A DNA stretch of 64,000 nucleotides from a virus, in IMG/VR virus record IMGVR_UViG_3300045988_080644; one strand, given 5' to 3'. The first letter of the stretch is position 1, and each line of letters starts with the position of its first letter. The translations under genes were made by a program, and so were the position numbers. The notes beneath the pieces are model-generated. The model did no database searches. It worked only from the letters and a program-made list of their open reading frames with translations, and was not told the DNA's origin. Positions 61,088 to 62,141 of the stretch are shown piece after piece.

Positions 61088-61297
61088 TTATTTTCTCCAT
61101 ATACTAGTTATACTATCTATACCTAGTAATCCCATACAACAATATAAAACTGTATCTATCATATCAGGAGCTTGTTTAGTTACAATACTACAATATATAA
61201 GTACTATTAAACTAACTACCCATCCTAATATGCCACACACTCTTTTACTACTTATTCCAGTATGTGCTGTTATTAATTTAATTAAAAACTATTTCAT
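61088..61297 (-). CDS. small two-TM membrane protein (holin-like), TAG-recoded
   Basis: Hand-translated as MK(TAG)FLIKLITAHTGISSKRVCGILGWVVSLIVLIYCSIVTKQAPDMIDTVLYCCMGLLGIDSITSIWRK; ATGA overlap with the upstream gene. Confidence 0.55.
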
Positions 61298-61422
61298 AAT
61301 TCTATATTGTCATTTAATTGGGTGCATTTAATTAAATATTTATCCCATAACTATTTATCTCTCTCATTTACAAAATTTAGAAATTCTTGTAATTCATTCA
61401 ATTGTATATTTATATCTCTCAT
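61294..61422 (-). CDS. small hypothetical protein, TAG-recoded
   Basis: MRDINIQLNELQEFLNFVNERDK(TAG)LWDKYLIKCTQLNDNIEL; ATGA overlaps on both sides. Confidence 0.45.
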
Positions 61423-62141
61423 ACCTAGTTACTATTCTAATTATATATTTGAGCAATTGGATTTAAACCCTATTGCTTATTCCACTAATTAATAATCTAT
61501 TTATCCCTATTTCTCCCTCTATTCATTTCTACATTATAGAAGGCTGGTCTTGTATTATAGTTCTTCTATTTTAATCCCTATTTAAACTGTCCAAAGTTCT
61601 AAACATTCTATAAGTTTTTATATCTACCATTAGTTAGACTATCAGTTACATTTTTAGTCCATCCACCTAAGTTAGATGCCCTTCTTCCAAATGAATAATA
61701 TTTTCCAGGTCTGCCATCTTCTATCATAGATAAATGTGAAGTGTCAAAAGCAGCCTACTATGGAATACCCTAATTAACTAAGGAGATATATCTTTGTAAT
61801 ACTTGAGGCTATGAGTCACTAATCTAAAAAGGTCCGCCCTACTAATAAGTGAGAGGATGATTCTTCTTTAAATCTTTTGTTTTAAACCATCCATTATCTA
61901 ATATTGATCTATGACCATTTGGCTTATGTACTTCACCACCATCTTCATGTTTCCATTTCTTTGCATTCTAAGCAAATATGGCTCTTTTTCTAGTTAGAGG
62001 ATTTTTACTATGTGTTAATTCTTCAGTAGTTTTACCTGTTCTCTTTTTAGTCTCAGTAAATTTTCCTCTATTTTCTTTTTTAATGTGTATTCCTGAACCT
62101 TTAGCTAGATAAGGGATACCAAATATTTCTAAATCTTCCAT
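61419..62141 (-). CDS. hypothetical protein, heavily TAG-recoded
   Basis: Checked codon by codon: 240 sense codons from ATG 62141 to TGA 61419, with 17 in-frame TAG and no TAA or TGA. Confidence 0.75.

Follow-up and report, generated by a model that had tools for sequence, protein, structure and literature searches.

The window analysed here, a stretch of 64,000 nucleotides of the IMG/VR virus record IMGVR_UViG_3300045988_080644, carries near its right end a minus-strand cassette of three genes, which are confirmed here as real and as readable only if TAG is translated as glutamine. The first gene is dense in TAG and codes for a protein of two domains, and the cassette is discussed below as a candidate lysis-type operon. 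The genes are arranged as follows:

61419..62141, minus strand: gene 1, 240 amino acids (241 codons including the TGA stop), with 17 in-frame TAG and no TAA
61294..61422, minus strand: gene 2, 42 amino acids, with TAG at codon 24 and a TGA stop
61088..61297, minus strand: gene 3, 69 amino acids, with TAG at codon 3 and a TAA stop

The original prediction, which was made from the letters alone, had proposed three translationally coupled minus-strand genes with 17, 1, and 1 TAG, and this arrangement was borne out by translation and by the ATGA overlaps found at both junctions (gene 1/gene 2 and gene 2/gene 3). In gene 1, TAG stands at codons 58, 100, 101, 106, 111, 124, 128, 129, 178, 181, 188, 192, 215, 219, 224, 235, and 239, i.e., at 17 of the 22 glutamine codons (77%), and the product has neither a hydrophobic signal nor a transmembrane (TM) segment. 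The cassette had also been described as invisible to standard calling of open reading frames (ORFs); this is correct for code 11, under which the ORF listing shows fragments of 57, 39, and 50 amino acids only, but code-15 calls of gene 1 are present in public protein collections at 94–97% identity.

An explanation by chance open frames or decaying pseudogenes, in which TAG would still be a stop, is highly improbable and is excluded for genes 1 and 3. When the window (31% G+C) was shuffled 20 times by mononucleotide, the longest runs free of TAA and TGA measured 130–214 codons, so that the 240 codons of gene 1 lie only moderately beyond chance and composition is modest evidence only; gene 2, moreover, is shortened to 32–38 amino acids in several close relatives, and its coding status is the weakest of the three. 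Coding status is decided by comparative data and not by composition. All three ORFs keep their frame in IMG/VR and ENA contigs of 160–242 kb, and the search among relatives for frame-breaking indels or a lost conservation of the frame yielded none (frames kept in 7–14 genomes). The ratio of non-synonymous to synonymous polymorphism (pN/pS) was 0.07 in the 7 genomes compared for gene 1, 0.21 in 8 genomes for gene 2, and 0.24 in 14 genomes for gene 3, and the cassette genes are thus under purifying selection. Chance frames are likewise at odds with the thousands of homologous clusters, the domains modelled confidently by AlphaFold2 (AF2), the suppressor tRNA, and the intact TAG-free homologues of a relative that uses the standard code.

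The meaning of TAG was read from codon exchange. At the polymorphic TAG sites of gene 1, the alternative codon was CAG in 13 of 13 cases and never another, codon 24 of gene 2 alternates between TAG and CAA/CAG, and glutamine predominates among distant homologues in the alignment columns where gene 1 has TAG. Translation of TAG as glutamine in the cassette is therefore well supported, from these exchanges and not from the identity of the tRNA. A tRNA with the matching anticodon is encoded nearby:

60021..60094, plus strand: suppressor tRNA with anticodon CUA, called by ARAGORN (label 'Pyl'), Rfam tRNA score 63 bits

Among the 16 tRNA genes of the window it is the one with anticodon CUA, and it sits in a TAG-free plus-strand block at a distance of about 1 kb from the cassette.

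Homologues of gene 1 were collected by an exhaustive search against representatives at 50% identity, with a 379-amino-acid variant as the query that holds three modules (A, B, and C). This yielded 2625 clusters and showed the protein to be a mosaic of the three modules, of which the window copy contains the first and the last:

61917..62114, minus strand: module A, amino acids about 10–75, a basic helical domain homologous to residues 366–436 of crAss001 gp45
61834..61845, minus strand: junction of module B, TTAGTAGGGCGG, coding for QQGG, the point of a 139-codon deletion/insertion polymorphism
61422..61835, minus strand: module C, amino acids 103–240, a divergent GH73 (FlgJ/glucosaminidase)-like, putative muralytic domain

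Module B is the 139-amino-acid insert of the commoner 379-amino-acid variant and is missing in the window copy; in the 379-amino-acid variants, it is bounded by two copies of a 12-nucleotide direct repeat, TTAGTAGGG(T/C)GG (QQGG-coding; L002:10001-11140). Since the architecture of modules A and C (215–246 amino acids) recurs in lineages that are only 30–63% identical, the form without module B is regarded as functional and not as a wreck. The motif [K/Y/H]-x-Q-x-G-G (YQQGG, KHQQGG, KFKQGG, MQNGG) recurs where domains meet and close to the N-terminus in several cassette proteins (L002:10001-12942; gene 1, amino acids 64–68 and 99–103) and at L002:5868-7580, a late protein of 570 amino acids encoded upstream of the large terminase subunit (TerL) gene; it could act as a linker or as a site of processing or binding.

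Module C is, judged from profile and structure comparisons, quite likely a divergent homologue of the GH73-type muralytic domain. The comparison was convincing only once diverse phage GH73 domains were used as the template: in hhalign, module C matched a diverse alignment of 13 GH73 sequences (phage endolysins, tail lysins, FlgJ, and the bona fide GH73 domain of the syntenic L146 protein) at a probability of 80% and P = 1.4e-5, with a score of 37.2 compared to a maximum of 16.5 in 50 column shuffles used as a control. Shallower templates gave P = 0.008–0.016, the alignment of enterobacterial FlgJ being marginal (P = 0.012–0.016), and a query made only from the distant subgroup of module C performed worse than the full query. 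Simpler searches did not connect the two families, as the module C profile did not reach the GH73 domain of P0145 in an hmmsearch of the representative proteins (E = 0.63), and a word-indexed protein search as well as a tblastn search of the phage collection with this GH73 domain were both empty. AF2 models were made for P0001 (97% identical to gene 1) and for the domain-only homologue P0124; module C reached a predicted local distance difference test score (pLDDT) of about 90 in both, and the top PDB neighbours of both models in Foldseek were GH73 FlgJ structures, with TM-scores of 0.40–0.50 and E > 1. The GH73 signature 'RY...L..GYATDP.Y' was aligned with the module C stretch 'GRYKNL...FKQGLKQKNYNTRPAFY'. 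Invariant in module C are E141 and Y195-N196, the latter within 'YN(T)RP', which is aligned with 'YATDP' of GH73, and position 133 is D, E, or N and acidic in nearly all members. Large homologues that hold modules B and C also carry the Pfam domains Phage_lysozyme2, Phage_lysozyme, or Glucosaminidase. Gene 1 is thus probably a peptidoglycan hydrolase, and its product, for which the original prediction had to leave the function blank, can now be described as a cargo-protein-1-like domain fused to a GH73-like, putatively muralytic domain.

The product of gene 2 is acidic and helical-looking; homologues were found in close relatives only, and scans of Pfam, PHROGs, and NCBIfam gave no significant match. 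Gene 3 was found in every cassette variant examined, and its family comprises more than 1000 clusters at 90% identity, none with a name or Pfam domain, from phage contigs of up to about 390 kb. In a 19-residue Kyte-Doolittle scan, amino acids 20–39 of gene 3 were strongly hydrophobic (mean up to 2.45) and amino acids about 46–66 stayed below 1.4; the N-terminal region is basic, and the basic C-terminus is short, consisting in the window copy of Arg-Lys only, with longer charged tails in relatives. Of the two hydrophobic helices and the charged C-terminus that had been described for the 69-amino-acid product, the first helix is therefore clear, but the second is weak and the charged end amounts to two residues. 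The best family match of gene 3 was phrog_1322 'membrane protein' (E = 4e-4 to 5e-5). Its designation as holin-like agrees in synteny and size with an annotated 'holin' of the Zeta phage Lera (PV725988, compared below) but finds no significant match among curated holin families, and gene 3 is a candidate holin.

The explanation favoured here, at a probability of roughly 0.55, is a late lysis-type operon gated by tRNA(CUA), which would consist of a GH73-like enzyme with a cargo-1-like domain, a small protein, and a holin-type membrane protein. UAG would be read as glutamine through a tRNA(CUA) that the phage itself encodes, and the cassette would be translated only then. Gene 1 would code for a soluble two-domain protein, the C-terminal GH73-type domain of which most likely cleaves peptidoglycan; gene 3 would code for a small inner-membrane protein with two membrane segments, probably N-in/C-in, which most likely acts as a holin and gives the gene 1 product access to the cell wall. 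With 17 UAG codons (77% of the glutamine codons) in gene 1, essentially no full-length enzyme would be made before the code switch, and the UAG density of this gene would thus guard against premature lysis. What the data establish are the ORFs, the reading of TAG as Gln, the purifying selection, the synteny, and the domain homologies; that gene 1 is muralytic and gene 3 a holin, that the cassette is expressed late, and which way its regulation runs are inferred.

Several findings weigh against this explanation. Module C had no match in Pfam, PHROGs, or NCBIfam when gene 1 and 13 homologues were scanned, the structural neighbours in Foldseek came with the E values above 1 already given, and a low-confidence extended hhalign alignment pairs D133, and not the invariant E141, with the catalytic Glu of GH73. 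For gene 3, the comparison with holin families was non-significant (with phrog_126, holin/anti-holin, the window copy gave E = 0.087 and one homologue E = 0.0076; TIGR01594 gave E = 0.07), and the labels of the Lera genes are annotations and not experimental results. In some relatives (L149 and L150), the cassette has module A and gene 3 and lacks a muralytic gene, and in others (L063) it has several; neither arrangement is typical of a minimal lysis cassette. Module A traces back to a cargo protein of the virion, modules A, B, and C have many homologues of 700–1500 amino acids that resemble virion-associated lysins, and GH73 domains occur in endolysins and tail lysins alike. Gene 1 may thus code either for an endolysin or for an injected virion lysin.

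Module A matched cargo protein 1 of crAss001 (gp45, PDB 7qog_M) with E = 2e-6 in phmmer and E = 1.9e-9 in a profile search, and gp45 was the sole match when PDB sequences were searched by profile with gene 1. In the AF2 model, pLDDT was 79–91 over amino acids 21–60, with helices at 27–35, 39–42, and 48–62, and matches in BFVD were crAss proteins. On the DNA level, module A is about 80% identical to small genes of Suoliviridae, in which it exists as a stand-alone gene of 71 amino acids labelled 'transcriptional regulator'; this identity was dropped for module A, as nothing was found for it beyond the name. An orthology of gene 1 with gp45 was ruled out because crAss_CARG1 (PF25725) is absent from gene 1, and in a Pfam scan it was missing from the 379-amino-acid variant as well; in the true gp45 homologue P0193, crAss_CARG1 directly follows module A (E = 3.9e-50). 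In crAss001 gp45, the module-A segment precedes the compact domain that is bound to the portal and is unresolved in virion maps (Bayfield et al. 2023, PMC10172136). Genes for HNH homing endonucleases were seen to split the module-A gene into two ORFs at an NAxKWKH motif (L063:1996-3574, L064:2591-3567, L147:2553-3798, and L149:4047-5535), and a 'transcriptional regulator' plus 'endonuclease' pair of the Suoliviridae phage cr1_1 (L001:3421-4199) looks like the same HNH split of module A.

The homology of module A with gp45 is the starting point for a possible but less probable explanation, according to which the cassette serves entry and not exit: its products would be packaged cargo or ejection proteins, module A would identify gene 1, like crAss001 gp45, as a protein inside the virion, the GH73-like domain would open the wall at genome injection (cf. 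the transglycosylase domain of T7 gp16), and gene 3 with its variable partners (a Gly-zipper TM protein and large 'MK-IPK-Q-GG' proteins) would form or assist a channel across the envelope. It fits that module A corresponds to residues 366–436 of gp45 and stands, in true gp45 homologues, directly before the portal-binding crAss_CARG1 domain, and also that Steigviridae and a rodent crass-like phage hold the motif in proteins of 730–990 amino acids, the genes of which lie between those of the muzzle ('stabilization') protein and of the virion RNA polymerase, one of these proteins being annotated as 'tail lysozyme'. Proteins of 1000–1400 amino acids combine modules B and C with lysozyme domains, relatives can have several muralytic and TM proteins in the cassette or no muralytic gene at all, and the sole 'cargo protein 1' annotation of Lera belongs to a gene in the syntenic cassette. 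The use of GH73 domains in both endolysins and tail lysins is equally compatible with entry. Gene 1, however, is without the two defining features of gp45, the crAss_CARG1 domain and the TM helix; the cassette stands apart from the structural block as an operon of its own on the opposite strand, and its small size and the pairing of a muralytic gene with a small membrane protein are classic for lysis cassettes. Another argument against entry comes from the duplication of module A, which occurs in two copies in about 9 of the 99 representative proteins; such repetition in tandem is seen more often in binding modules than in a packaging signal.

The content of the cassette was compared among genomes with flanks of 98–100% identity. 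There, the cassette always begins with the module-A gene and always holds gene 3, and the content between them varies: gene 1 occurs with 240 or 379 amino acids, and further genes code for a Gly-zipper TM protein of 140 amino acids and for proteins of 312, 449, and 644 amino acids; some cassettes carry a gene of 108 amino acids for an HExxH 'protease' (phrog_15610, E = 8e-47). The exact 240-42-69 arrangement is common to the window, L010, and L013. The breakpoints of gene gain and loss lie exactly at the ATGA(A/G)A start/stop overlaps. In more distantly related genomes, the cassette also includes a protein that resembles an SLT transglycosylase (judged by eye from its motif), a separate module B gene, and HNH endonucleases, and in L146-148 the order is module-A gene, HNH gene, a gene for a protein of 730 amino acids with the Pfam domain Glucosaminidase, and a gene-3 homologue joined by an ATGA overlap, all divergent from a PD-(D/E)XK exonuclease gene.

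Such variability could also mean that the region between the module-A gene and gene 3 is an accessory hotspot, i.e., a plug-in site for genes of superinfection exclusion, host range, or counter-defence, with gene 3 as a membrane anchor or exclusion protein and not a holin. The differing content between nearly identical flanks, homing endonucleases included, the junctions placed exactly at ATGA(A/G)A gene starts, and the filing of the best gene 3 match, PHROG 1322, under 'moron, auxiliary metabolic gene and host takeover' agree with this, yet both constant genes are purifying-selected and group-wide as core functions would be, cell-wall enzymes and membrane proteins make up most of the variable genes, in agreement with lysis or entry, and no defence-related domain was seen, a search with the PADLOC library not having been made. 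The hotspot is therefore considered improbable. Also rather unlikely is a hypervariable late 'cargo rack', in which the gp45-derived module A would direct the proteins fused or coupled to it, be they GH73-like, SLT, module B, protease-like, or TM proteins, to the capsid, from where they would be injected. If so, near-identical Zeta crAss-like genomes would inject different sets of envelope-breaching proteins, and gp45 would have been split into small exchangeable genes that recombine at ATGA(A/G)A starts and QQGG-coding repeats.

This gut phage fits the large-genome Zeta group of crAss-like phages, for which genomes of 145–192 kb, a TAG, TGA, or standard code, and recoding of mostly late genes have been described (PMC7886860). 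The assignment was made because the TerL relationship, the sizes of related contigs, the homing endonucleases, and the code switching match the published group: the terminase of the close relative L002, encoded just past the position that corresponds to the right end of the window, is 26–28% identical to Crassvirales terminases, and related contigs measure 160–190 kb, contain many homing endonucleases, and differ in genetic code even where they are evolutionarily close. One such switch was seen in the cassette genes themselves, which are TAG-recoded in the window and in L063 (MT835539.1) and follow the standard code in L064 (MT835470.1). The latter carries TAG-free homologues of module A and of gene 3 (80 amino acids in the case of gene 3), and in-frame TAG is essentially absent from its homologous genes, with one occurrence in a single ORF of 349 amino acids.

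The proposal that lysis or envelope functions are the main recoded set did not hold. In L002, TAG was counted 19 times in TerL, 37 times in the portal gene, and 27 times in the gene of the 570-amino-acid late protein, and the exonuclease gene and small genes between the packaging genes and the cassette contain zero TAG; the impression of a main recoded set is an artefact because the window ends before the TAG-rich packaging genes. Recoding, as far as the distribution of TAG tells, appears to mark late genes generally, as published, and the early-type genes of the window, which has 41 standard-code ORFs of at least 150 codons, appear to keep the standard code. A bias of degree holds nevertheless, as gene 1 is more TAG-biased than the neighbouring late genes of the packaging module: in L002, TAG makes up 25 of 31 glutamine codons in gene 1 versus 87 of 156 in these genes (Fisher p = 0.0096). 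This matches the preferential recoding of lysis genes published for recoded crAss-like phages (bioRxiv 10.1101/2021.08.26.457843) and is a further point against a role in entry, although late TAG-recoded expression as such would suit virion proteins equally.

The surroundings of the cassette and the other TAG-dense gene of the window are listed here:

61028..61059, minus strand: terminator hairpin with a 13-bp stem, between the cassette and a convergent gene of 103 amino acids
62142..62264, no strand assigned: AT-rich, divergent intergenic region between gene 1 (minus strand) and the PD-(D/E)XK exonuclease gene
62265..63179, plus strand: PD-(D/E)XK exonuclease gene, the divergent neighbour of gene 1
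45370..46431, minus strand: YkuD gene, 353 amino acids with 19 TAG

The hairpin, which closes the operon, has a folding energy of -25.8 kcal/mol (z = -6.2 relative to shuffles), and the cassette lies on the strand opposite to terminase and portal. Region 62142..62264 is presumed from its position to be the promoter region of the cassette; a scan for sigma-70-type sites in it gave a number not above that of shuffles, and no promoter motif was common to the sequences upstream of gene 1, of the YkuD gene, and of the structural block. The product of 45370..46431 has a YkuD (L,D-transpeptidase-fold) domain (Pfam E = 8.5e-6, which passes the curated cut-off), and its N-terminal region is peptidoglycan-binding-like, with matches of PHROG 'endolysin' families to amino acids 28–109; it is a candidate for a further cell-wall enzyme.

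Other observations in the window concern RNA and mobile genes. Two RAGATH-1 hammerhead ribozymes (RF03152) were found at 53971-54055 and 54949-55054 (minus strand; 81 and 70 bits, gathering score 56), about 900 nucleotides apart in a region poor in long ORFs. A tRNA-like gene at 44533-44605 (minus strand; Rfam tRNA 52 bits) was given a two-base anticodon 'ta' by ARAGORN, with the 6-nucleotide loop CGTAGA read from the sequence, and may be a defective or unconventional decoder; an extra Rfam tRNA match of 35.7 bits at 48700-48771 (minus strand), within the second tRNA cluster, was left uncalled by ARAGORN. A LAGLIDADG-like ORF at 21983-22951 (minus strand; with TAG in frame 3 times, the LAGLIDADG motif being recognised by eye) and an HNH/endonuclease VII-like ORF at 58483-59331 (plus strand; no TAG, PHROG E = 9e-20) are mobile endonuclease genes as expected for crAss-like genomes of the Zeta group. 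The ORF at 36287-37204 (minus strand), with 8 in-frame TAG and a GNAT-like motif in its C-terminal half (by eye), overlaps the TAG-free ORF 36918-37286.

Code 15 in late and lysis genes of crAss-like phages, together with a suppressor tRNA, is already published, and a syntenic cassette has been annotated in a Zeta phage. What is new here is modest, namely the fused protein of modules A and C, the GH73-like nature of a widespread domain that curated libraries do not recognise, and the hypervariability of the cassette at gene level between nearly identical genomes, with breakpoints at ATGA(A/G)A and at the QQGG-coding repeat. An operon that probably attacks the cell wall, located beside the suppressor tRNA gene that unlocks it, would fit the published idea of recoding as a safety catch on lysis, and a standard-code annotation of such phages misses their muralytic genes. 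In crassviruses, the gp45-like domain may mark injected proteins or may simply be a binding module that was reused in lysins.

Among known systems, GH73 enzymes (FlgJ, PDB 5DN4 and 2ZYC; PF01832) appear to resemble module C, which is predicted as an alpha-helical, lysozyme-like domain of about 130 amino acids, with an acidic residue conserved after the 'QAA(L/F)' helix and the signature 'RY...GY(A/N)T(D/R)P.Y' in alignment; module C differs from them in a much shorter beta-hairpin region, has two candidates for the catalytic residue (D133 or E141), and stays below all curated family thresholds. Class II holins, e.g., S21 of phage 21, have two TM domains, and gene 3 is like them in its size of about 70 amino acids, its two hydrophobic segments with basic ends, and its position adjacent and translationally coupled to a muralytic-enzyme operon, but unlike them in the missing sequence-family match, the weak second segment, and the very short tail, and no dual-start motif was seen. 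With crAss001 gp45 (PDB 7QOG chain M), gene 1 shares the alignment of its amino acids about 10–75 with gp45 residues 366–436. It is far smaller (240 versus 842 amino acids), has no N-terminal TM helix, no tail-barrel helix, and no crAss_CARG1, and adjoins an exonuclease gene instead of lying between the muzzle and RNA polymerase genes.

The closest annotated system is found in the Zeta phage Lera, a TGA-recoded genome in which the genes for cargo protein 1 (309 nucleotides), an endolysin (2088 nucleotides), a holin (264 nucleotides), a hypothetical protein, and an SLT transglycosylase follow each other; recoded codons occur in the genes for the endolysin, the holin, and the SLT enzyme (PMC12386605 Table S1). 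Gene 3 corresponds by synteny to the Lera 'holin', because sizes and neighbours in L146-148 (exonuclease V and ferredoxin/thioredoxin reductase) match those in Lera. Both cassettes are divergent from an 'exonuclease V' PD-(D/E)XK gene and lie within a few genes of terminase and portal, with a convergent block coming after them; both have the order of module-A gene, muralytic gene, and small membrane protein of about 70–87 amino acids (a correspondence made via synteny, with L146-148 as intermediates), and both have recoded stops inside the muralytic and 'holin' genes. The reassignment differs, with TGA read as Trp in Lera and TAG as Gln in the window. Furthermore, the cargo-like protein (102 amino acids) and the endolysin (695 amino acids) are separate in Lera, whereas module A and a short GH73-like domain of much greater divergence are fused in the 240 amino acids of the window protein, and the window has the extra 42-amino-acid gene and no SLT gene.

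The published code-15 crAss-like phages, in which TAG is read as Gln in late and lysis genes (Yutin et al. 2021, PMC7886860; Borges et al., bioRxiv 10.1101/2021.08.26.457843; Peters et al. 2022, PMC9523058), share with the phage described here the TAG-free early and replication genes, the TAG-rich late genes, the suppressor tRNA, the lysis-type TAG preference, and the code switches between close relatives (L064 being standard). In principle, nothing sets the window apart from these phages, and its recoded operon takes the form of a small opposite-strand island beside the suppressor tRNA gene.

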